IMG/VR virus record: IMGVR_UViG_3300042887_002440
Span: 1,899 to 65,898 of that record
From: a virus
Taxonomy: Duplodnaviria; Caudoviricetes
DNA length: 64,000 bases
Strand: one strand, 5' to 3'
The notes beneath the pieces are model-generated. The model did not search any database. It was not told where the DNA came from and saw nothing but the letters and a program-made list of their open reading frames with translations. This document shows, one piece after another, positions 49,934 to 63,994 of the stretch. Both the position numbers and the translations under genes were made by a program. Every line of letters starts with the position of its first letter. Positions within the stretch are counted from its first letter, which is position 1.

Positions 49934-49962
49934 TTGACTTTTTTAAATTTTTATGCTATAAT
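49934..49962 (+). promoter_or_regulatory. Sigma70-type promoter of gp55
   Basis: TTGACT-N17-TATAAT with an extended -10 TG. Confidence 0.85.
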
Positions 49963-49985: not shown

Positions 49986-50651
49986 GTGGATATGAAAGAA
50001 TTAAAATTTGATTTTGAAGAAGATTTTGTTATAGAAGAAAATTTTGATATTTTAAGCGAAGAACCGGAAGATATACCTGTTGTTACTAAAGTTAAACGCA
50101 AAAAAGTTACACGAGAATATATAAATAATGCAGATTTTTGTGCAGCTTTAGAGAAATATAAAGCTGATTGCGTTTTAGCGAAAGAAGAAGGCAGAATTAA
50201 ACCTAGAATTCCGAATTATATCGGCGAATGCTTTGTTAAATTATCAGAGGGATTAGCTCGTAGACCTAATTTTTTTGGTTATTCATATAAAGACGAAATG
50301 ATTGCTGATGGAATTGAAAATTGTTTAATGTATTTTGAAAATTTTGATTCGGAAAAAACGAAAAACCCATTTGCTTATTTTACTCAAATTCTTTGGTGGT
50401 GTTTTGTTCGTAGGATCCAAAAAGAAAAAAAACAACAGTATATAAAATATAAAGCAACAGAAAATTTCGGTATTCTTGATGAAGCTGAGTTATTGGAACT
50501 TGGCGAAGGTCAAATTAAACAAATTGAAGTTTATGATAATATGTATGATTTTATTCAAAAATTTGAAGATACTGAATTTAAAAAAGCTGTTAAAATTCCT
50601 GTAGCAAAAAAGAAAAAAGCCAAAGGAATTGAAACATTTTTAGAGGACTAA
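49986..50651 (+). CDS. gp55: Late transcription sigma factor
   Basis: YINN.DF, YIGECF.K....L..RPNF..YSY.DEMI.DGIENC and NPFAYFTQI...F.RRIQ.EK motifs. Confidence 0.96.
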   Translation: MDMKELKFDFEEDFVIEENFDILSEEPEDIPVVTKVKRKKVTREYINNADFCAALEKYKADCVLAKEEGRIKPRIPNYIGECFVKLSEGLARRPNFFGYSYKDEMIADGIENCLMYFENFDSEKTKNPFAYFTQILWWCFVRRIQKEKKQQYIKYKATENFGILDEAELLELGEGQIKQIEVYDNMYDFIQKFEDTEFKKAVKIPVAKKKKAKGIETFLED

Positions 50652-51379
50652 TATGGAAATTCAGGAAAATACCTTTTCGCTTTTGCTTTATCGTATTCTT
50701 TCTTGGTTTCAATAATACAAATAAATTTTTTACGTTTAATATTTTTTGTTACTCGATCTTTATTTTCTTTTCTGTATGCTTTTCTAGGGTTTGTTTCTTG
50801 TTTTCGTTTAGTATTAAATGTTAGCCCTGTATACCATCCATTAGGTATTTCGTTTTTATGTTTTACTGTAGAATTTAATATGCCATTAGTAATTCTAATT
50901 TTATTGGACATTGGATTATTTTTACCTGATACGTTTGCGTGATTTTTTGATATCTTTTCTTTACTATCTTTTGTTCGGGGTTTATTATAATTTGGGTGTT
51001 TTTCTTTCGAAACATCTCTACCGAAAAACCCATTTGGCGCGGCGTATGCCATGTTAACAAATAATGGATTTTTAACAACATTAAAAATTTTTTGAATTTG
51101 TAATTCTTTGTGCGTTGCTTCTGGTCTTGTATCATGATAAGAAATTATTTGAATGGAAAATAAATGAGGGTTTTCTTTTAATTCGGATTCCCAAATATTT
51201 TTGTAGAATTTTGATTTTACAGATCCCATATAACCAGATTTGATACTATTGATTGCAGATGAACCGATGTAATTTGATGGGATTATATTTGAATTATTTT
51301 TTGGTGGTAACTTATCGCCTGAGTATGTAATATGATAAACGCAGTATTTTTGTTCAGTATAAGTATTTGTGCTGAACAT
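50648..51379 (-). mobile_element. Free-standing GIY-YIG (Seg-like) homing endonuclease gene with NUMOD-like repeats, antisense to neighbours
   Basis: YCVYHITY...NYIGSS...GYMGS, E...Q; HPNYNK and GKNNPM repeats; AGGAGA RBS supports the ATG at 51379. Confidence 0.78.
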
Positions 51380-51450
51380 AGTTGTCTCCTTAGATAACAC
51401 GGTTAATGTTTAGTGCTACTGGATATGGGGATATCGCGAGTAGCTTTTTT
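51371..51450 (+). ncRNA. Putative structured antisense sRNA over the endonuclease start (copy 1)
   Basis: TATAAGTA 5 nt upstream; two hairpins; U-tract; same architecture as 62156-62232. Confidence 0.5.
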
Positions 51451-51477
51451 ATTATTTATTATTTTTTGGATTTTGTT

Positions 51478-55985: not shown

Positions 55986-56023
55986 TTGACTTTATAGAGG
56001 TGTTAATATATAATACCTCTATA
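55986..56023 (+). promoter_or_regulatory. Sigma70-type promoter of the tRNA cluster, overlapped by an inverted repeat
   Basis: TTGACT (55986)-N17-TATAAT (56009); TATAGAGGTGTTA/TAATACCTCTATA arms. A late TATAAATA also lies at 56087-56094. Confidence 0.8.
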
Positions 56024-56115: not shown

Positions 56116-56190
56116 GCCTCTTTAGTATAATGGCTATTACAGTTGACTTGTAATCTTCAGATCTCAGTTCGATTCTGGGAAGAGGCTCCA
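56116..56190 (+). tRNA. tRNA-Thr(UGU)
   Basis: GCCTCTT/AAGAGGC acceptor stem, TTCGA T-loop, CCA end; anticodon stem has two U-U mismatches. Confidence 0.82.
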
Positions 56191-56198
56191 AATTATTA

Positions 56199-56275
56199 CT
56201 CCCATTAGCTCAGTCTGGTAGAGCGATCCGTTTGGGGCGGATAGGTCGGCAGTTCGAATCTGTCATGGGAGACCA
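56199..56275 (+). tRNA. tRNA-Pro(UGG)
   Basis: CTCCCAT/ATGGGAG acceptor stem, ATCCG-TTTGGGG-CGGAT anticodon arm, CCA. Confidence 0.93.
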
Positions 56276-56282
56276 AATATTA

Positions 56283-56358
56283 TGCGAGGTATGTCAGCGG
56301 TAGACGGCTAGGCTCATAACCTAGAGGACGTTGGTTCGATTCCAACCCTTCGCATCCA
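56283..56358 (+). tRNA. tRNA-Met(CAU)
   Basis: CTAGG-CTCATAA-CCTAG anticodon arm, GTTGG-TTCGATT-CCAAC T-arm, CCA; one extra nucleotide at the acceptor stem. Confidence 0.85.
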
Positions 56359-56382
56359 AATTTGTTTAGTGAGAATTATATT

Positions 56383-56994
56383 ATGATTATAGGTTTACTT
56401 GGGTTTATTGGTTCCGGTAAAGGAACTGCTGGTGATATTTTAGTAGAAAATGATTTTACTGCTTTATCTTTTGCTGGTTCATTAAAAGATGCTGTATCTT
56501 CTATTTTTGGTTGGGATAGAGCCTTATTAGAAGGAGATACTGAAGAATCACGAGTTTTTCGTGAAACTGTTGATGATTTTTGGTCAGTTAAATTTGGTAA
56601 ATCTATAACGCCTAGATATATTTTACAATATTTTGGTACAGAAGTTTGCAGAAATAATTTGCTTGATAGTATTTGGGTTGATTCTCTAGAAAGAAAAATT
56701 AAACAGTATGATAACGTAGTTATTACTGATGTTAGATTTAAAAATGAAATTAGTTTTTTAAGGTCTATTGGAGCTAAATTTATACATATTGATAGAAAAG
56801 AAACTAGACCTGAATGGTATGGATTTCTTGACTCGGTAGATAGACCTGTATTTGTGGCTTATGCTGAAGCTAGAGATATTCATAAATCTGAATATGAATG
56901 GTATAGTAATCCTCATATTGATTATATAATTCAAAATGATGGAACTCTACAAGAATTAGAGTTAAAGATATTAGATGTAATTGTAAATGATTAA
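56383..56994 (+). CDS. gp1: Deoxynucleoside monophosphate kinase
   Basis: IIGLLGFIGSGKGT, FA..LKD, TPR.ILQ.FGTEV.R and ITDVRF.NE motifs; start at MIIG. Confidence 0.92.
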   Translation: MIIGLLGFIGSGKGTAGDILVENDFTALSFAGSLKDAVSSIFGWDRALLEGDTEESRVFRETVDDFWSVKFGKSITPRYILQYFGTEVCRNNLLDSIWVDSLERKIKQYDNVVITDVRFKNEISFLRSIGAKFIHIDRKETRPEWYGFLDSVDRPVFVAYAEARDIHKSEYEWYSNPHIDYIIQNDGTLQELELKILDVIVND

Positions 56995-57002
56995 AAGATA
57001 AA

Positions 57003-57079
57003 TCCCAGATGGGCGCAAGGTGTGCCAGCTGACTGTTAATCAGTTTATCAGGTAGGTTCGATTCCTACTCTGGGAGCCA
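57003..57079 (+). tRNA. tRNA-Asn(GUU)
   Basis: TCCCAGA/TCTGGGA acceptor stem, GCTGA-CTGTTAA-TCAGT anticodon arm, CCA. Confidence 0.9.
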
Positions 57080-57096
57080 AATAAGACCCATTAGGT

Positions 57097-57170
57097 GTGA
57101 CTATGACGGAATTGGTAGACGTCCTCGATTGTGATTCGAGATTTTGTGGGTTCAAGTCCCACTAGTCACC
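57097..57170 (+). tRNA. tRNA-His(GUG) lacking encoded G-1 and CCA
   Basis: GTGACTA/TAGTCAC acceptor stem, CTCGA-TTGTGAT-TCGAG anticodon arm, C73; followed by CCT. Confidence 0.82.
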
Positions 57171-57248
57171 CCTAATGGGTTTAAAAAATAAATATGTAAT
57201 AGAAGTCAACTATTGGCTTTATTCAAATTTATATAAAGGAATATATTA

Positions 57249-58292
57249 ATGTTAAGATTTAAAACGTTTATTAATGAACAACAAGCTGCTGAACATGTTG
57301 GATATACTGCTGATTTATATTTGCACCCAACAGAAAAGCCTATTGTTTATATTTATAAAAAAGGCGTTCCTCTTGATGAAGCAGCTAAAGATTGGTCATT
57401 GCCTACTGTAACATCAACAGACCCTAATGATCCAACTAAAACTGGAAGAATTAGAGAATTAACAAAAGATAAAATAAAATTACCATCTGATCATCATTTA
57501 AAAGCATTTTCTGAATTTAAACCTACGAATTTGAATGATCATGAAAAAACTATGGAAGAATTCCATAAACACTTAGCCGCTCATGGGTTATATTCTGCTA
57601 CAGATAAACATCCTATGCATAAAACTCCTCATATGCAAAAGTTTGAAGATGGAGTACATGATATTTTAGGTGGTGGAAAGCATGAACGTTGGCATACTGA
57701 TTCTACTGGAGCATTAGGTTCTCCTGGATCAGCTGCTGCTAGAGATGCTGCTGTATATTCTAGTAGTCATGCCTCTACTCATGTAGGCAAAATTACTGGA
57801 TATGATGATAAAAAGAAACCAATAGTTGAACCTCTAAAGCCTGGAACTAAACCTGGAACTGTTCATATTTTTGATGATTATGGCGAAAAAATTCCTGGAA
57901 CTAATCAAGGAGATAGCCAACATAAAGCTCCATCTAGGGAAGAACGAGGCGATAGACATTTTATCAGAGCTTCAGATATTAGAGCAATACCAGAAAAAGG
58001 TATTCCTAAAAAAGGTGGAAGTCATTATGATCATAATACACCAGAAGGTATTGCTGACTATATTAAAGATAAAACGCCATCAAATGAAAAAAATAATATG
58101 CACAATAAATTGCGTGTAAAAATTGGAAAATGGATATCAGATAATCCTAATCCAGCAGAAGGATCTGTTAATCATAAAAAGCGACAAAATTTATTAGCGC
58201 ATATAAATAGCGAAACTAATAGGTCACATTATAATCATGATGGTTGGGTAGAAAAACATATGAAAAATGTTGATTCTAAGGCTAAAACTTAA
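57249..58292 (+). CDS. His/Lys-rich hypothetical protein, probable internal head protein
   Basis: N-terminus MLRFKTFINE resembles T4 capsid-targeting sequences; AATAAATA late-like box upstream. Confidence 0.6.
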   Translation: MLRFKTFINEQQAAEHVGYTADLYLHPTEKPIVYIYKKGVPLDEAAKDWSLPTVTSTDPNDPTKTGRIRELTKDKIKLPSDHHLKAFSEFKPTNLNDHEKTMEEFHKHLAAHGLYSATDKHPMHKTPHMQKFEDGVHDILGGGKHERWHTDSTGALGSPGSAAARDAAVYSSSHASTHVGKITGYDDKKKPIVEPLKPGTKPGTVHIFDDYGEKIPGTNQGDSQHKAPSREERGDRHFIRASDIRAIPEKGIPKKGGSHYDHNTPEGIADYIKDKTPSNEKNNMHNKLRVKIGKWISDNPNPAEGSVNHKKRQNLLAHINSETNRSHYNHDGWVEKHMKNVDSKAKT

Positions 58293-58299
58293 AAAATAA

Positions 58300-58389
58300 G
58301 GAAGAGTGGCTGAGTGGTTTAAGGCAGCGGTCTTGAAAACCGTCGAGGGTTAGTCCCCTCCTAGAGTTCGAATCTCTACTCTTCCGCCA
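58300..58389 (+). tRNA. tRNA-Ser(UGA)
   Basis: GGAAGAG/CTCTTCC acceptor stem, long variable arm, GCGGT-CTTGAAA-ACCGT anticodon arm, CCA. Confidence 0.95.
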
Positions 58390-58396
58390 AATAAAT

Positions 58397-58471
58397 GTCG
58401 CTATCGTCTATCGGTTAGGACACAAGATTTTCATTCTTGTAAGCGGGGTTCGACTCCCCGTAGCGACGCCA
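58397..58471 (+). tRNA. tRNA-Glu(UUC)
   Basis: GTCGCTA/TAGCGAC acceptor stem, CAAGA-TTTTCAT-TCTTG anticodon arm, CCA. Confidence 0.93.
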
Positions 58472-58524
58472 ATATAGTATCAAAAATTGAACCTTTATAA
58501 ATAAAAATAAAAGGGTTCGATTGT

Positions 58525-58971
58525 ATGAAAATATGTCCAAAATGTTTTATTAAACATGATAAAAATGGAAAATACTGTTCTAGAACTTGCGCTAACAGTA
58601 GAACTTGGTCAGAAGAAGATAAACATAAAAAACGGTTAACCGTATTAAAAACTTTAGGTATGGAATATATCCCTAAAACCGCTAAAGCCGAAAAATGTTA
58701 TCCTAATGAAACGGTTTTTGTTGAACATTCAAGTTATTCTAGGCGTAGTTTAAAAAAGAGAATAATTGAACAAAATTTGCTTAATCATTGCTGTCAAGAA
58801 TGTGGGTTGAAACATGAATGGAATGGGAAACCAATAGTTTTGCAATTAGATCATATTAATGGTATTAATAATGATCATAGAATAGAAAATCTGCGTTTTC
58901 TTTGTCCTAATTGTCATACGCAACAAGATACTTATGCAGCAAAAAATATAAAAAAAAATAAAATTGGGTAG
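58525..58971 (+). mobile_element. Free-standing HNH endonuclease gene in the tRNA cluster
   Basis: CxxC, LQLDHING...DHRIENLRFLCPNCH; N-terminal CPKC...YCSRTC zinc finger. Confidence 0.9.
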
Positions 58972-59042
58972 GTAGTTTAATTGGATAAAACGCGTGCCTC
59001 CAAAACACAAAGATGAGAGTTCGAATCTTTCCCTGCCCGCCA
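58966..59042 (+). tRNA. tRNA-Trp(CCA)
   Basis: GGGTAGG/CCTGCCC acceptor stem, CTCCAAA loop, CCA; anticodon stem has two C-A mismatches; overlaps the HNH stop codon. Confidence 0.82.
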
Positions 59043-59064
59043 AATAATTTAATACGAGGAAGTT

Positions 59065-59247
59065 ATGAAAACTTTATTTTTAGTTAGTTTATGTTTATTA
59101 TCAACAGGATGTGCGAGTTCTGGTGATTTAGCTAAGTTACAAGAGGATCATGCTGCTTTAACTGCAAAGGTTGATTCTTTAACTAATTCAAATAAACAGT
59201 GCGATAAAAAATTAGATAATTTCTTCAAAAAAGTTCAGAAAAAATAG
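59065..59247 (+). CDS. Small Lpp/OprI-like outer-membrane lipoprotein
   Basis: Signal peptide with lipobox LSTG-C, heptad coiled coil, C-terminal Lys; GAGGA RBS. Confidence 0.75.
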   Translation: MKTLFLVSLCLLSTGCASSGDLAKLQEDHAALTAKVDSLTNSNKQCDKKLDNFFKKVQKK

Positions 59248-59250
59248 TTC

Positions 59251-59279
59251 TTGACTAATACATAGTTACGTTATATAAT
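59251..59279 (+). promoter_or_regulatory. Sigma70-type promoter
   Basis: TTGACT-N17-TATAAT upstream of a tRNA. Confidence 0.85.
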
Positions 59280-59292
59280 AGTAATGTAATTT

Positions 59293-59368
59293 GCCCCTTT
59301 AGCTCAATGGTTAGAGCGTCCGACTCATAATCGGTTGGTTCTAGGTTCGAATCCTAGGAGGGGCACCA
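59293..59368 (+). tRNA. tRNA(CAU), probably Ile2 (lysidine type)
   Basis: GCCCCTT/GAGGGGC acceptor stem, CCGA-CTCATAA-TCGG anticodon arm, A73, CCA; body resembles bacterial tRNA-Ile2. Confidence 0.85.
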
Positions 59369-59376
59369 AATATTCA

Positions 59377-60075
59377 TTATGTGAATAATATTGATTCAAT
59401 TAAGTGTAATTTTAATTTGGAAATATATTCTTTATGCGATATTCTTATGGTTTGAATATTATAGTGTTTGAGAATTAATGCATCTCGTTGTAAATCATAT
59501 TCTTTGGTTTGTTCATGTTGAGATCCATCTAATTCTATTAGTAGGTTTAATCCTGGAAAATAAAAATCTCCGTAATATAATTTAGTAGGACATCTAAATG
59601 TTTTATTTTTTATAAAATTTGTATAATTGTTTTTTAATAGCCAATTTTCAAATGATTTTTCTAAATATGAAGGTGAACTTCTATTTCTATTTTCGTTGGG
59701 ATTCCAACCATTATCTATTCTATTTCTTACATGGTTGGATAGTAATATAGATTTACATTTAGTTGAACACGTTTTACCTGTTCCTGTGTGATATTTTTTG
59801 CATATTATACATAGTTTTATTTTTGTATATGGATAATAATTCTTTGGTTTTGTTCCTTTTTCTGGTCCACTTTTGAATTTTGAATAATCTTTATTTCTAT
59901 TTCCATATTTTGCAGAACATGATGATGAGCAAAATTTGTTTTTGTTAAAAATTGGGTTATTACACTCAATACAATATGATTTAATAACGTGTTTTTGTAG
60001 GTGTTGTTTTAATGATTGTGATGTTATTTCTTGTTTACAAATAATACAAGAACATCTAATATTAAATTTAGACAT
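59377..60075 (-). mobile_element. Free-standing DUF559/Vsr-like endonuclease with zinc-ribbon repeats, antisense in the tRNA cluster
   Basis: S.LE..F, YYGDFYF, LIELDGSQH and D..RD motifs; several CxxC/CSxxC repeats; late TATAAATA on the minus strand at 60164-60171. Confidence 0.82.
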
Positions 60076-60182
60076 TATAGTTATTCCTGCGTACTAGTTT
60101 TAGGGACAGCCCAGTTACCTGCAATTGCGGTTGATAATACTCTTAATATTATCTAACCTAATTTATTTATACAATATTTAAT

Positions 60183-60270: not shown

Positions 60271-60299
60271 TTGACTTTTTAGTTTAGTCGAGTTATAAT
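60271..60299 (+). promoter_or_regulatory. Sigma70-type promoter of gp45
   Basis: TTGACT-N17-TATAAT. Confidence 0.85.
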
Positions 60300-60338: not shown

Positions 60339-61019
60339 ATGAAAATTTCCCAAGAAACAACTGCTATTCTAAAAAACTTTGCTCATATTAACCAAGGTAT
60401 TTACTTTAGAAAGGGTAATGTAGTTTCAACTATGAGTCCAGGTAAAAATATTTTATCTGCGGCTACTATCTCTGATACAATTCCTCAAGACTTTGGTATT
60501 TACGATTTAAATAATTTCTTATCAGTTGCTTCTTTATTTAAAGAAGGTCCAGAATTAGAGTTTGATGATAAACACGTAATTATTAAAGGTCGTGGTGGAC
60601 GTAGTAAGATTAAATATCGTATTGCCGATCAATCAATGATTGTTGTTGCTCCAGATAAACGCCCTAATTTACCAGCAGTTGATGTTAAATTTACGTTTTC
60701 TAAAGAAGATTTTGAATGGGTAATAAAAACCGCAACTGTGCTTGGTGCAACGCACGTTGCTGTTGAGTCTGATGGAACTACTGTATCTTTAATTACATTT
60801 GATGAGGCAAATGATTCAAGCCATGTTAATTCATTAGAATTAGCTGATGTTAATCCAGAAGGTAAAAGCTTTAAATTAGTTTTTAAAACTGAAAATTTAA
60901 AAGTTATTCCTGATACATATTCAGTAGAAATTAGTAATAAAGGTTTGTCTGCTTGGACATCAGTCACAGCTGAAATTAAATATTGGATTACTCTTGAAAT
61001 GAGTTCTGTGTACGGATAA
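60339..61019 (+). CDS. gp45: Sliding clamp
   Basis: MKIS.ET..ILKNFA.IN.GI, FGIYDL..FL and YWI.LE motifs. Confidence 0.95.
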   Translation: MKISQETTAILKNFAHINQGIYFRKGNVVSTMSPGKNILSAATISDTIPQDFGIYDLNNFLSVASLFKEGPELEFDDKHVIIKGRGGRSKIKYRIADQSMIVVAPDKRPNLPAVDVKFTFSKEDFEWVIKTATVLGATHVAVESDGTTVSLITFDEANDSSHVNSLELADVNPEGKSFKLVFKTENLKVIPDTYSVEISNKGLSAWTSVTAEIKYWITLEMSSVYG

Positions 61020-61527: not shown

Positions 61528-61551
61528 GGGCGGCTTCGGTCGCCCTTTTTT
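61528..61551 (+). terminator. Intrinsic terminator with cUUCGg loop
   Basis: GGGCGGC-TTCG-GTCGCCC followed by TTTTTT. Confidence 0.9.
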
Positions 61552-61552
61552 A

Positions 61553-62164
61553 TTATTTTCTTTTAGTTCTTTCTCTTAATCTATAAAACGTTGGGTATTT
61601 TGGGTTGTCTAATCTTTTTCTAATATTAATTCCAGGAAAATGTTTTTGCGCTTCTCCTACTGATGGATAATCTATACCTTCACAATTTACTGGGCAATTA
61701 TTTGCTTTAATCATTTTTTGTTTTGCTTCTTTGAGGAAATTTGCTGTATCTGGTCTAGATCTACCAAACATAGGGTTTTTTTCTCCTAATATATCTCGAG
61801 TTATCATCCCTTGTTTGTAATTTTCAGATTTAGAAGTATCTCCTCCAGATAACCCATCTTCTGGACGCATATTTGCCCAATTTTTGGATTCTACTATATT
61901 TAAAATATCTGATAACAGTAAAGAAACTCTTACTAATGTATCGATATCGTAAAATAGTTTTACCCAAGTTGTATTTATTGAATTGCCGTGTTTTTTTAGA
62001 TGATTTTTCCAGCGAGTTCCAGAACCTTTGTATTTATTTGGATCTCTAGTTGTTTTACCTAGATATTTTAATCCAGTAATAGAATGTTGCTTGATATACA
62101 AATATGTTGGTTTAAAATTTGAACGCTGTTGTTCAGTGATGGTATAAGTATTATTGCTGGACAT
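61553..62164 (-). mobile_element. Free-standing GIY-YIG (Seg-like) homing endonuclease gene, antisense to neighbours
   Basis: TYLYIKQHSITGLKYLGKT..DP.KYKGSG..W..HLKKHG, WAN and GEKNPMFG motifs; AGGAGA RBS supports the ATG at 62164. Confidence 0.85.
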
Positions 62165-62232
62165 TACAGTCTCCTGATTGTGCGTTAAATGTTTAGAACT
62201 AGTGGGAGTTGGCGCTCCGCGACTAGTTTTAT
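62156..62232 (+). ncRNA. Putative structured antisense sRNA over the endonuclease start (copy 2)
   Basis: TATAAGTA 5 nt upstream; two hairpins with compensatory changes relative to copy 1; U-tract. Confidence 0.5.
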
Positions 62233-62263
62233 TTATTATTATTTTTATTTTGGAGTTTATATT

Positions 62264-63205
62264 ATGATACGTGAGCATATGTTATGGTGCGAAAAATACA
62301 GACCAGAAAAAATTGCCGATTGTATTCTTCCTGAATCAATCAAATCAACATTTCAAGAATTTGTCACTCAAAACAAAATACCTCATTTATTAATTGCAGG
62401 TTCAGCTGGAGTTGGTAAAACAACAATTGCAAAAGCATTGTGTAAAGAAGTTGAATGCGACTATATAGTAATTAATGGTTCTGACGAAAATGGTATTGAT
62501 GTTCTTCGTGGTAAAATTAAAAATTATGCTTCATCCGTTAGTTTATCTGGTGGACGTAAAGTAATTATTATTGATGAAGCAGATTATTTAAATGCTAATT
62601 CATTACAACCAGCTCTTCGTAATGCAATTGAAGAGTTTTCTCGTAACTGTTCATTTATTTTTACTTGTAACTATAAAAACCGTATTATTGAACCATTACA
62701 TTCAAGATGTTCTGTTATTGACGTAAAAATTACAAAAGAAGATAAACAAAAGCTAATGGCTCAATTTTTTAAACGAGTTTGCTGGGTTTTGGATGAAGAG
62801 AAAGTTGAATATAACAAAGAAGTTGTGGCTCAGGTTATTGCGAAATATTATCCAGATAATCGTAGAGTATTAAACGAACTTCAGCGTTATGCAATGGGTG
62901 GAGTTATTGACGTTGGTTTATTATCAGTAGTTTCTGATGTAAATTTAACACCATTAATTAAAGGATTGAAAGAAAAATCATTTGCTGATGTTAGAAAATG
63001 GGTTGTTGATAACTTAGATAATGATAGTCAAACAATTTATCGTAAAATGTATGATACAATGTATGATATTTTGAAACCCAATTCAATTCCACAGTTAGTA
63101 TTATTAATTGGTCGTTACCAATATCAAACAGCTTTTGTTATTGATCATGAGATTAATTTGATGGCATTTTTTACTGAATGTATGGTTGATTTAGAATTCA
63201 AATAG
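62264..63205 (+). CDS. gp44: Clamp loader large subunit
   Basis: W.EKYRP, GSAGVGKTT, IIDEAD and LHSRC motifs; start re-assigned to 62264 (GGAG RBS). Confidence 0.96.
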   Translation: MIREHMLWCEKYRPEKIADCILPESIKSTFQEFVTQNKIPHLLIAGSAGVGKTTIAKALCKEVECDYIVINGSDENGIDVLRGKIKNYASSVSLSGGRKVIIIDEADYLNANSLQPALRNAIEEFSRNCSFIFTCNYKNRIIEPLHSRCSVIDVKITKEDKQKLMAQFFKRVCWVLDEEKVEYNKEVVAQVIAKYYPDNRRVLNELQRYAMGGVIDVGLLSVVSDVNLTPLIKGLKEKSFADVRKWVVDNLDNDSQTIYRKMYDTMYDILKPNSIPQLVLLIGRYQYQTAFVIDHEINLMAFFTECMVDLEFK

Positions 63206-63212
63206 GTGACTT

Positions 63213-63596
63213 ATGGATCTGTTTAAAGAAGTTTTACCATCGTTACTTCAAACTAAAAAATCTATTATCACATCTGATAATGAAAAGGAATACGAACCTT
63301 ATATTGTAAATAGAGCATTAAGTCAGCATAATGATTGTTTATTATATGTTAATGAAATGAATCGTTATTCTGGTTTAGATAAAAAAATGCAATATGACTA
63401 TTATATAAATACTTTTGTAGCCAAAAAAAGACCGTTTCAGAAATGGTATAAAGCAAGCGAATCAAAAGATATTCAGGTAATTAAGGAGTATTTCGGTTAT
63501 TCATCAGAAAAAGCCAAAGATGCATTAAGAATTCTTACTCCTGAACAAATTAATAAAATTAAGGAAGTTGTTGATAAAACAGGAGTTATAAAATGA
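63213..63596 (+). CDS. gp62: Clamp loader small subunit
   Basis: Y.PYIVNRALS, NEMN and IKEYFGYS.EKA..AL.IL motifs. Confidence 0.93.
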   Translation: MDLFKEVLPSLLQTKKSIITSDNEKEYEPYIVNRALSQHNDCLLYVNEMNRYSGLDKKMQYDYYINTFVAKKRPFQKWYKASESKDIQVIKEYFGYSSEKAKDALRILTPEQINKIKEVVDKTGVIK

Positions 63597-63994
63597 GTGA
63601 CATTTTTAATGGGTATGGAGTTGAGGTCTTTATTGATGAAAATAATTTTTTAAAAATTAAAGAAACATTATCTAGAATTGGCGTTCTTTCAAAGAAAGAT
63701 AAAACTTTATATCAATCATGCCATATTTTACATAAACAAGGAAGATATGTTATTATTCATTTTAAAGAATTGTTTGGTTTAGATAATAAATCTCATGAAA
63801 TTAGCGAAAATGATATTGCTAGAAGAAATACTATTGTAAATCTTTTAAAAGACTGGGAACTATTAGAAATTCGTCATGAAAATGAATGTAAATCTCCATT
63901 AGTTCCTATTAGCCAAATTAAAATTTTATCTTATAAAGAAAAAGACGAATATAATTTGGTTAGTAAATATAATATCGGAAAGGTTAAAAAATAA
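63593..63994 (+). CDS. regA: Translational repressor RegA
   Basis: FLKIKETLSRIGV, LYQSCHILHKQGRY.I.HFKELF.LD and RRNTI motifs. Confidence 0.97.
   Translation: MSDIFNGYGVEVFIDENNFLKIKETLSRIGVLSKKDKTLYQSCHILHKQGRYVIIHFKELFGLDNKSHEISENDIARRNTIVNLLKDWELLEIRHENECKSPLVPISQIKILSYKEKDEYNLVSKYNIGKVKK

Follow-up and report, generated by a model that had tools for sequence, protein, structure and literature searches.

A strongly covarying two-hairpin element, most likely a cis-antisense regulatory RNA, at the starts of homing-endonuclease genes in uncultured T4-like phages

Among the selfish genes of large lytic phages, free-standing homing endonucleases are the most common. Two genes that resemble them lie reversed, on the minus strand, in the stretch of viral DNA analyzed here (the window), 64,000 nucleotides that make up most of the 65.9-kb IMG/VR virus record IMGVR_UViG_3300042887_002440, and a cassette of about 100 nt is common to their 5' ends. 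Read on the plus strand, opposite to the nuclease genes, the cassette holds a promoter-like box and two hairpins, P1 and P2. Comparative analysis indicates that the element is real, widespread and strongly covarying, and that it lies antisense to the starts of homing-endonuclease genes. It is most likely a cis-antisense regulatory RNA with a late promoter of its own. If this reading is right, the family, with at least 120 distinct copies and absent from Rfam 15, would give the short list of phage regulatory RNAs a large, strongly covarying member.

The two window copies (Table 1) agree at 72% across 114 nt (within-record E 1e-9), far above the bodies of the genes that they open, whose proteins, P0003 for copy 1 and P0004 for copy 2, are only 22% identical. 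The original prediction had described one plus-strand layout at both reversed genes, and all four of its features are in place: a box inside the first nuclease codons, P1, which starts 5 nt after the box and carries an anti-Shine-Dalgarno sequence, P2, and a U-rich tail that doubles as a convergent box for the nuclease. In copy 1, P2 consists of an outer stem of 6 bp, a G facing GCG, an inner stem of 5 bp and the loop GGGG, and a T6 tail leads into TATTTATT (51453-51460, plus reading). The plus-strand RNAs of 51371-51455 and 62156-62238 are predicted to fold into P1 plus P2 at -23.7 and -26.0 kcal/mol (z of -2.9 for copy 1 and -3.6 for copy 2 against 200 shuffles); their reverse complements reach -15.4 and -15.3 kcal/mol, nearly all of it from P2.

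A gapped pattern drawn from the two window copies picked out 30 IMG/VR stretches holding about ten distinct variants of the cassette. Seven of the 30 loci (L026, L036, L038, L039, L042, L044 and L046) appear to be chance matches, having neither P2 nor a match to R1, a covariance model built on a MAFFT alignment of 11 distinct copies; locus L049 has a partial R1 match only (E 0.19). R1 recovered copies that the pattern had missed, including a short form in which the start-codon complement CAT stands directly 5' of GCUG and P1 is a single hairpin of 7-8 bp. Run on whole records, it found seven copies in a 99-kb contig, six in a 60-kb contig, four in a 126-kb contig and one or two in each of seven others, with no match in contigs G002, G012 and G013; the resulting set has 36 distinct copies. 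A second pattern scan was anchored on P2, constraining TTAG, RGG, CCGYG and TATTTAT only and nothing in or upstream of P1. It matched at least 120 stretches, and 79 of the 80 loci listed hold a full-length R1 match, which gives 84 distinct copies. Combined, the sets comprise at least 120 distinct copies, all in IMG/VR contigs of uncultured T4-like phages and up to seven to a contig. This recurrence, together with the covariation described below, places the cassette beyond chance.

A covariance-model search of Rfam and of phage genomes had been proposed with the original prediction; it placed the copies in uncultured contigs and none in Rfam 15 or in seven cultured phages. Rfam 15 gave no match at E <=1 on either window copy or on the cassettes in six further loci. 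The cultured T4-like phages searched with R1 (T4, Aeromonas phage 25, S-PM2, DLP_6, S-SKS1, DSL-LC03 and S-SRM01) yielded no credible match, their best scores, at E 0.022-0.64, being set aside as chance. T4 and Aeromonas phage 25 have nothing better than E 0.64, the best S-PM2 match (20.5 bits, E 0.022) overlaps a tRNA-Pro gene and is not a relative, and the better S-SRM01 match, which is not beside a reversed nuclease, was treated as chance. BLAST of one cassette against 50,697 phage records returned only chance matches of 23-31 nt; with two nuclease-plus-cassette regions as queries against the same records, one drew short matches to the nuclease body in three records and the other drew none.

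The family has a fixed plus-strand order: a NATAAATA-like box, a spacer of 4-8 nt, a conserved G, P1, one base, P2, 1-8 nt and UAUUUAU. The spacer between box and G is 5 nt in 61 of 84 copies, and the G itself is kept in 80 of 84. P1 begins with the pairs C-G, U-A and G.U, ends at YUAG, and holds CUCCU(U) within or beside its loop. P2 has a 6-bp outer stem of free sequence, the last pair being U-A, and then a core in which two single bulged G residues on the 3' strand surround one G-Y pair; G-C, G-C, two or three more pairs and a variable loop follow. Loops and outer stems differ freely in sequence among copies. The P2 core is unchanged in all of them (51420-51439 and 62203-62222 in the window); it exceeds the needs of a plain hairpin or terminator, and may be a protein-binding site or a tertiary motif. 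Inspection by eye led us to drop several familiar motifs. No -10 fits a MotA-type middle promoter in GCTGRA, the helices are too short for an RNase III site, and P2, with its variable loops and lack of a tandem G.A, does not suit a kink-turn or T-loop; GGAG, at which RegB would cleave, is not conserved, and a Chi-like GCTGG was dropped as well.

Pairing persists through extensive change in sequence. A structure-blind MAFFT alignment of 11 copies, analyzed with RNAalifold, has compensatory changes in 14 of 27 pairs. In model-fitted alignments, standard pairs fill 96.8% of cells among 20 distinct rows and 96.6% among 84 rows, and sliding the 3' partner by 1-3 columns leaves only 32-49% of cells paired. 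Pairs that change on both sides number 18 of 27 (20 rows) and 24 of 27 (84 rows), so that covariation in homologs, a check proposed for the two-copy structure, is found; none of 500 column shuffles reached any observed measure of pairing. P1 has compensatory changes in 8 of its 15 pairs in the first of these sets and in 13 of 15 in the second. In the 84-copy set, P1 and the six outer-stem pairs of P2 lie outside the search pattern, and even so central pairs pass through spectra such as GC 30, CG 15, AU 9 and UA 4.

Both boxes of the cassette resemble phage late promoters. The usual geometry of a T4 late promoter puts the box at -13 to -6, and with this geometry the 5-nt spacer would set the start of the plus-strand RNA on the conserved G, one base before P1. 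UAUUUAU at the other end is the complement of a minus-strand NATAAATA beside P2, from which the nuclease mRNA would start at or just inside the base of P2; a perfect NATAAATA on the minus strand lies at most 45 nt from P2 in 32 of 36 copies, and 1-8 nt from it in 28. NATAAATA has been reported as the late promoter of T4-like cyanophages (PMC2984593). In the window, 17 of 46 copies of NATAAATA are not fully within called genes, which cover 90% of it, and several stand 22-48 nt upstream of genes. Within the same window TATAAATA is no commoner than in shuffles (21 versus 21), and TATAAGTA is not enriched (4 matches versus 6.6 expected).

The plus-strand box falls in codons 2-8 of the nuclease, where it mostly encodes Ile-Tyr; 22 of the 36 copies and 56 of the 84 match NATAAATA perfectly here. 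Codon choice at 83 sites encoding I-Y was compared with the background of the same open reading frames (ORFs), by binomial P values that ignore kinship among the copies. The codon before I-Y ends in T at 82 of 83 sites, across 14 different amino acids (background 0.34, P 5e-37); the Ile codon is ATT at 70 of 83 (background 0.39, ATA being commoner overall; P 3e-17); and the Tyr codon is TAT at 80 of 83 (background 0.75, P 2e-7). By this synonymous-codon choice the plus-strand box, which the original prediction had called promoter-like, is selected at the DNA level, and the evidence indicates the same for both promoter boxes. The idea that the box merely reflects a GIY protein motif has four results against it, namely the reading frames, the leader position, the codon choice and the identity of the 8-mer with a late promoter: the box is found in all three frames (31, 3 and 2 of 36), and in the long form its Ile/Thr-Tyr lies in a leader, MSSxx(I/T)Y, ahead of the real GIY-like strand and common to different PHROG families.

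The leader itself is imposed on the protein by the cassette. Long-form proteins, among them those of the window (51359-51379 and 62144-62164), open with MSSxx(I/T)Y and short-form ones with MxIY, in nucleases of unrelated families, and compensatory changes in P1 alter codon 2 from Ser to Thr, Phe or Pro. Information overlaps on two strands in this compact layout, with first codons, putative promoter and RNA helix written on the same bases.

The strand on which the structure forms can be read from its wobble pairs. Where one strand has a G.U pair, the complementary strand has an A.C mismatch, an asymmetry that lets only one of two complementary RNAs fold. Cells that pair on the plus strand only (G.U) stand to those that pair on the minus strand only (A.C) as 123 to 6 in the 36 copies and 213 to 23 in the 84, where many of the G.U cells sit in near-invariant columns and represent few independent events. 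At the base of P1 the ratio is 65:0 in the 36 copies and 134:0 in the 84, and at its top 33:0 and 14:1, so the observation made on the window that G-U pairs of P1 form on the plus strand alone extends to the family. Over all pairs of P2 it is 25:6 and 65:22, the A.C cells being confined to the two apical pairs. In the ten-pair core of P2 every cell is paired, 360 of 360 in the 36 copies and 840 of 840 in the 84; 9 and 30 of these cells are G.U, and none is A.C. The internal-loop G and the Y of GYG make G-C 59 times, G.U 17 times, A-U 8 times and A.C never (84 copies). Folding energies agree for P1, which taken alone folds at -7.9 kcal/mol on the plus strand and -2.7 on the minus strand in the 36 copies (plus more stable in 36 of 36) and at -5.9 and -2.5 in the 84 (77 of 84). 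P2 folds at -10.6 and -9.6 kcal/mol in the 36 copies (plus more stable in 27) and at -10.1 and -9.4 in the 84 (52 of 84). The asymmetry of pairs and folds marks P1 as a plus-strand structure, with the nuclease initiation region kept open, and indicates that the element is selected on the plus strand.

The same counts bear on the view that the element works in the nuclease mRNA only. There the minus-strand form of P2 (P2') would be a 5'-terminal hairpin that blocks 5'-end-dependent decay or binds a regulator, the Shine-Dalgarno region would simply be kept open, and the plus-strand signals would be by-products. Such an mRNA would indeed begin at the hairpin in the 28 copies of 36 with the minus-strand box 1-8 nt away, and P2 is almost equally stable on the minus strand. 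P1 would be left unexplained, however: it has the compensatory changes noted above (8/15 and 13/15), its near-invariant G.U pairs are A.C mismatches on the mRNA strand, and its region folds at only about -2.5 kcal/mol there. Nor would there be an explanation for the synonymous-codon bias that spells NATAAATA on the other strand, and the P2 core has its G.U cells with zero A.C. We regard a role confined to the mRNA as improbable.

The reading that we favor, with a probability of roughly 55%, is that the cassette is a portable module in which two convergent late promoters and a cis-antisense RNA of 65-85 nt damp translation of the nuclease, much as RNA-OUT of IS10 does for its transposase. Free-standing homing-endonuclease genes in a clade of uncultured T4-like phages would carry the module, with two T4-type late promoters (NATAAATA) facing each other about 65-95 bp apart. 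The minus-strand promoter would start the nuclease mRNA at, or within a few nucleotides of, the base of P2, and P2' may act as a protective 5' hairpin of that mRNA. The plus-strand promoter, in the first nuclease codons, would start a short RNA at the conserved G of GCUG, antisense to the translation initiation region of the nuclease. This RNA would consist of P1, with CUCCU at or next to its loop, then P2 and then a U-rich tail, the probable site of its 3' end. Its predicted length is about 80 nt in the long form found in the window and about 65-70 nt in the short form. The RNA would pair with the open Shine-Dalgarno/AUG region of the mRNA, blocking ribosome binding and exposing the duplex to RNase; convergent transcription or polymerase collision may add interference. 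The selfish nuclease would be held low and late, as the IS10 transposase is by RNA-OUT. Two features typical of antisense control can be recognized in the sequences, namely an outward box inside the 5' end of the gene and a stable antisense stem-loop carrying the complement of the ribosome-binding site; that the boxes fire, where the RNA has its 5' and 3' ends, that it terminates at P2 and that it represses are what we infer.

Several observations weigh against this account. The plus-strand box is imperfect in 14 of 36 and 28 of 84 copies, and both window boxes are TATAAGTA, a one-mismatch variant common to related copies of the lineage. The invariant bulged-G core of P2 is accounted for by none of the readings considered here, and P2, being nearly as stable on the minus strand, may serve the nuclease mRNA too. 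Alignments A3, A4 and A7 are model-fitted, the 11-row alignment alone being structure-blind. Because the copies are related, there were fewer independent events than the cell counts and the binomial P values suggest. Relatives of P0004 at five loci (L014, L015, L018, L019 and L020) have no cassette, which is therefore not obligatory. The tail, too, is a mediocre intrinsic-terminator U-tract in many copies. At least five T in 8 nt follow P2 in 36 of 36, 0-2 nt from the stem; many of these tails open with 2-4 other bases and are interrupted by A, and a scan for the terminator consensus listed neither window copy. The T-richness is already explained, since the complement of the minus-strand promoter requires T. 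Finally, the gp47-like and gp44-like genes of the window begin 33-36 nt past P2 with no sigma-70-like promoter between, so that efficient termination at P2 would be costly; the RNA may then read on, the antisense segment becoming the leader of a longer late transcript.

This last point leads to the view that P1-P2 on the plus strand acts in cis, as the leader of host-gene transcripts that read through from upstream or are driven by the box. It would be an insulator, a leaky terminator, a processing site or a 5' stabilizer that limits the polar damage of an insertion and feeds late transcription downstream, and any antisense effect would be incidental. Neighbor orientation is compatible with such a role: both neighbors run against the nuclease in 62 of 120 copies (24 of 36 and 38 of 84), both run with it in 20, and the remainder are mixed or unknown. 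The downstream gene often begins 3-70 nt from the cassette, and in one occupied site (locus L040, see below) the inserted DNA continues past P2 with ATATTTATAAATAT, a palindrome that reads as a late box on either strand, and supplies the downstream gene with a new Shine-Dalgarno sequence. T4 nucleases are described as embedding promoters for neighboring genes (PMC2988022). The 20 co-oriented copies, however, have no neighboring gene from which plus-strand RNA could come or which could gain from a plus-strand promoter, and they keep the signals at least as well: the box is perfect in 15 of 20 (versus 40 of 62 with both neighbors opposed) and P1 is plus-stable in 20 of 20. It is chiefly these copies that favor a self-driven antisense RNA over a host-transcript leader. 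The distance to the downstream start also ranges from 3 to more than 300 nt, and a leader gives no reason why P1 should enclose exactly the Shine-Dalgarno sequence and start codon of the nuclease, in long and short form alike. We consider the leader role unlikely.

The structured plus-strand element does travel with nuclease genes, as originally proposed: in 108 of 120 copies the cassette stands at the start of a minus-strand ORF, 60 aa or longer, that has a Shine-Dalgarno-like site. The linked nuclease ORFs are about 140-350 aa long and span phrog_10820, 655, 12434 and 12324 as well as the Pfam families GIY-YIG and SegE_GIY-YIG. The GIY-YIG label given to both window genes fits one better than the other. 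For P0004 the assignment has support: its N-terminal domain is predicted at pLDDT 81-96, its best PDB folds are those of the I-TevI catalytic domain (1mk0 with TM 0.66 and 1ln0 with 0.64, TM being normalized to the target and the Foldseek E only 0.53), and its tblastn matches are annotated GIY-YIG. For P0003 the label draws on motifs and relatives only. It matches phrog_10820 at 4e-33 and phrog_314 at 1e-14, has only a weak NUMOD3 match below the cut-off in Pfam, and gives a poor structure model (pLDDT 47); of ten cassette-linked proteins aligned with it, four match SegE_GIY-YIG and one GIY-YIG. A profile of the 203-aa nuclease family (that of P0004) had no match among PDB sequences, and when the profiles of the two nuclease groups were compared with each other the probability was only 49%, over 28 columns.

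Because the cassette is joined to several nuclease families, it is a module shuffled among nuclease genes. For the same reason an RNA cofactor, which the original prediction had offered as one role, is unlikely. On that view the nuclease protein would bind the RNA as a cofactor or guide, and the invariant core of P2 does resemble a protein-binding site; the same cassette, however, precedes nucleases of different PHROG and Pfam families, relatives of the 203-aa nuclease occur without it, and to our knowledge homing endonucleases are protein-guided. We give the idea almost no credence. Type I antitoxin is not a fitting label either: the targets are nucleases of 140-350 aa, not small toxic peptides (usually <60 aa) made from a stable mRNA that a labile antisense RNA keeps in check, and nothing suggests post-segregational killing. 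Target size leads us to reject membership in the type I toxin-antitoxin class.

Comparison of occupied with empty sites shows how the cassette sits in inserted DNA. The window has an empty site at 63593 (63560-63600), where ATGA is the overlap between the gp62-like gene and the one after it; L040 (10059-10812; the same as L061) has a 213-aa nuclease and a short cassette at this site. The inserted DNA therefore includes the cassette in full. Upstream of the gp44-like gene, one site is taken by P0004 in the window (61553-62264) and by a P0003 relative in L025/L030, so that two different nucleases bearing the same cassette occupy one site. In L058 (the same as L021), an intact cassette (1501-1596, 49.7 bits) stands beside a decayed nuclease gene, of which only a 67-aa ORF remains, with no other ORF of at least 80 aa in the roughly 1.1 kb behind it.

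A cassette at one end of an inserted segment, and common to unrelated nuclease genes, also invites a reading at the DNA level, with hairpins in single-stranded or cruciform DNA that have a part in recombination, in the priming of replication or in spreading the nuclease cassette. G.T is the least destabilizing DNA mismatch, and the strand asymmetry could arise in single-stranded DNA too. Against this, the two flanking boxes and the exact enclosure of the ribosome-binding site point to expression control, loops and outer stems are free in sequence, and free-standing homing endonucleases, as described in PMC2988022, are not known to need a donor hairpin. A mobility signal in the DNA, also raised in the original prediction, is without positive support and very unlikely.

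A wider version of the antisense proposal is possible, and we hold it tentatively: the module may be a general control of homing endonucleases in a large clade of uncultured T4-like phages, acting in trans as well and docking an RNA-binding protein on P2. The four to seven copies in one genome share the P1 loop and stem, so the small RNAs would act in trans on each other's mRNAs, and repression of the whole nuclease load of the genome would depend on copy number. The bulged-G core of P2 would dock a phage or host RNA-binding protein.

Table 1. Nuclease genes of the window and features of the two cassette copies (window coordinates; RNA ends and promoters are predictions)
Feature	Position	Strand	Remarks
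Nuclease gene 1, homing-endonuclease-like	50648-51379	minus	243 aa, P0003; start codon 51379-51377; between a 221-aa gene and the gp47-like gene
Copy 1 plus-strand box, TATAAGTA	51358-51365	plus	one mismatch to NATAAATA; within nuclease codons 5-8; spacer TTTGT, G at 51371
Copy 1 predicted antisense RNA, ~82 nt	51371-51452	plus	start G, P1, P2, U-rich tail; ends placed from box spacing and tail
Copy 1 hairpin P1	51372-51413	plus	5' arm complements nuclease codons 1-3, start codon included
Copy 1 anti-Shine-Dalgarno, CTCCTT	51386-51391	plus	P1 loop region; complements nuclease AAGGAG
Copy 1 hairpin P2	51415-51444	plus	GCTACT-G-GATAT-GGGG-ATATC-GCG-AGTAGC
Copy 1 putative late promoter of nuclease, AATAAATA	51453-51460	minus	8 nt from P2; complement is part of the plus-strand U-rich tail
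Nuclease gene 2, GIY-YIG-type homing endonuclease	61553-62164	minus	203 aa, P0004; start codon 62164-62162; between terminator 61528-61545 and the gp44-like gene
Copy 2 plus-strand box, TATAAGTA	62143-62150	plus	within nuclease codons 5-8; spacer TTATT, G at 62156
Copy 2 predicted antisense RNA, ~81 nt	62156-62236	plus	ends predicted
Copy 2 hairpin P1	62157-62196	plus	anti-Shine-Dalgarno CTCCT at 62171-62175
Copy 2 hairpin P2	62198-62227	plus	ACTAGT-G-GGAG-TTGGCG-CTCC-GCG-ACTAGT
Copy 2 putative late promoter of nuclease, AATAAATA	62230-62237	minus	2 nt from P2

The phage of the window is a distant T4-like phage; the clamp-loader gene (62264-63205) has 57-59% identity with Stenotrophomonas phage DLP_6 and T4-like cyanophages. 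The plus strand holds most structural and replication genes, and the two nuclease-like genes sit on the minus strand between plus-strand genes. Just before the 3' end of the reversed 203-aa nuclease gene is a strong UUCG-loop terminator, GGGCGGCTTCGGTCGCCC followed by T6 (61528-61545, plus), so that no separate early promoter is evident for the gp44-like gene downstream. Four sigma-70-type promoters come close to consensus (TTGACT-N17-TATAAT, 11 of 12 matches), every one of them on the plus strand (49934-49962, 55986-56014, 59251-59279 and 60271-60299); they are probably the early promoters of the phage. Nine tRNA genes cluster at 56116-59366 (Rfam tRNA, 44-68 bits) with small ORFs interspersed, flanked by the gp46-like gene and a 226-aa ORF (60339-61019) that is probably the sliding clamp. 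A third reversed nuclease-like ORF (59377-60075, minus; 232 aa) matches DUF559 at 7e-7 and homing-endonuclease PHROGs, and has a minus-strand TATAAATA box at 60164-60171, 89 nt upstream. This ORF has no P1/P2 cassette, so the module is not used by every reversed nuclease in this phage.

In a literature search no antisense or two-hairpin module was found described for the starts of homing-endonuclease genes; closest is CfrI of cyanophage S-PM2, an antisense RNA of about 225 nt tied to psbA at a single locus (PMC2984593, PMC12197685). In the accounts consulted, CfrI is likewise an antisense RNA of a T4-like phage opposite a homing-endonuclease gene; it differs in being a single locus, where the element described here has many, and S-PM2 carries no related R1 match. 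A survey that reports 8,495 candidate structured RNAs from IMG/VR intergenic regions, including pairs on opposing strands (PMC10690425), draws on the same sequence collection and on the same kind of evidence, covariation in intergenic hairpins. Its main text names no motif tied to homing endonucleases, and P2 or P1 may be listed there anonymously.

Control of homing endonucleases has been described in terms of mRNA hairpins, promoter choice and autorepression (PMC2988022). For I-TevI, I-TevII, I-TevIII and segB of T4 and for mobE of Aeh1, an mRNA hairpin hides the ribosome-binding site in early transcripts, and an embedded TATAAATA late promoter gives late-only, low-level expression of the nuclease (PMC2988022, PMC3014915). 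The present cassette likewise combines RNA structure at the translation initiation region with a late promoter. Here, however, it is the opposite strand that carries the structure, the site on the mRNA is left open, and antiparallel genes are in the majority, whereas genes with T4-type hairpins run with their neighbors; segD is the sole reversed nuclease gene of T4 in the account of PMC2988022. As a T4-type hairpin sequestering the ribosome-binding site the cassette fails on its mRNA-strand fold (-2.7/-2.5 kcal/mol), its A.C mismatches, and the minus-strand promoter upstream of P2. If the favored reading is right, these phages have a second solution to nuclease control, a self-contained antisense module that moves between nuclease families, and one that would account for late, low-level expression of nucleases inserted against the direction of their neighbors.

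The closest parallels to the proposed mechanism lie in bacterial mobile elements. In FinP/traJ of F-like plasmids, the antisense RNA is usually helped by a dedicated RNA-binding protein. FinP resembles the predicted RNA in being a two-hairpin antisense RNA of about 80 nt, with a first hairpin that complements the target's ribosome-binding site and a second followed by a U-rich 3' tail, and the core of P2 could be a comparable protein-binding site. The traJ leader forms mirror-image hairpins, whereas the mRNA side of P1 is destabilized by A.C mismatches. In IS10/Tn10, RNA-OUT is made from an outward promoter just inside the 5' end of the transposase gene, convergent with the gene's own, as a short stable antisense stem-loop, and its loop pairs with the unstructured 5' end of the RNA-IN mRNA, ribosome-binding site included. 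The cassette shares with it the enzyme gene of a mobile element, a putative convergent outward promoter and a stem-loop that complements a ribosome-binding site, and its effect would likewise grow with copy number. The two have no sequence or Rfam relation. The cassette's target would be the homing endonuclease of a lytic phage and not a transposase, both of its putative promoters are T4-type late boxes, and its overlap of about 65-90 nt includes a second hairpin, P2, with a conserved bulged core.

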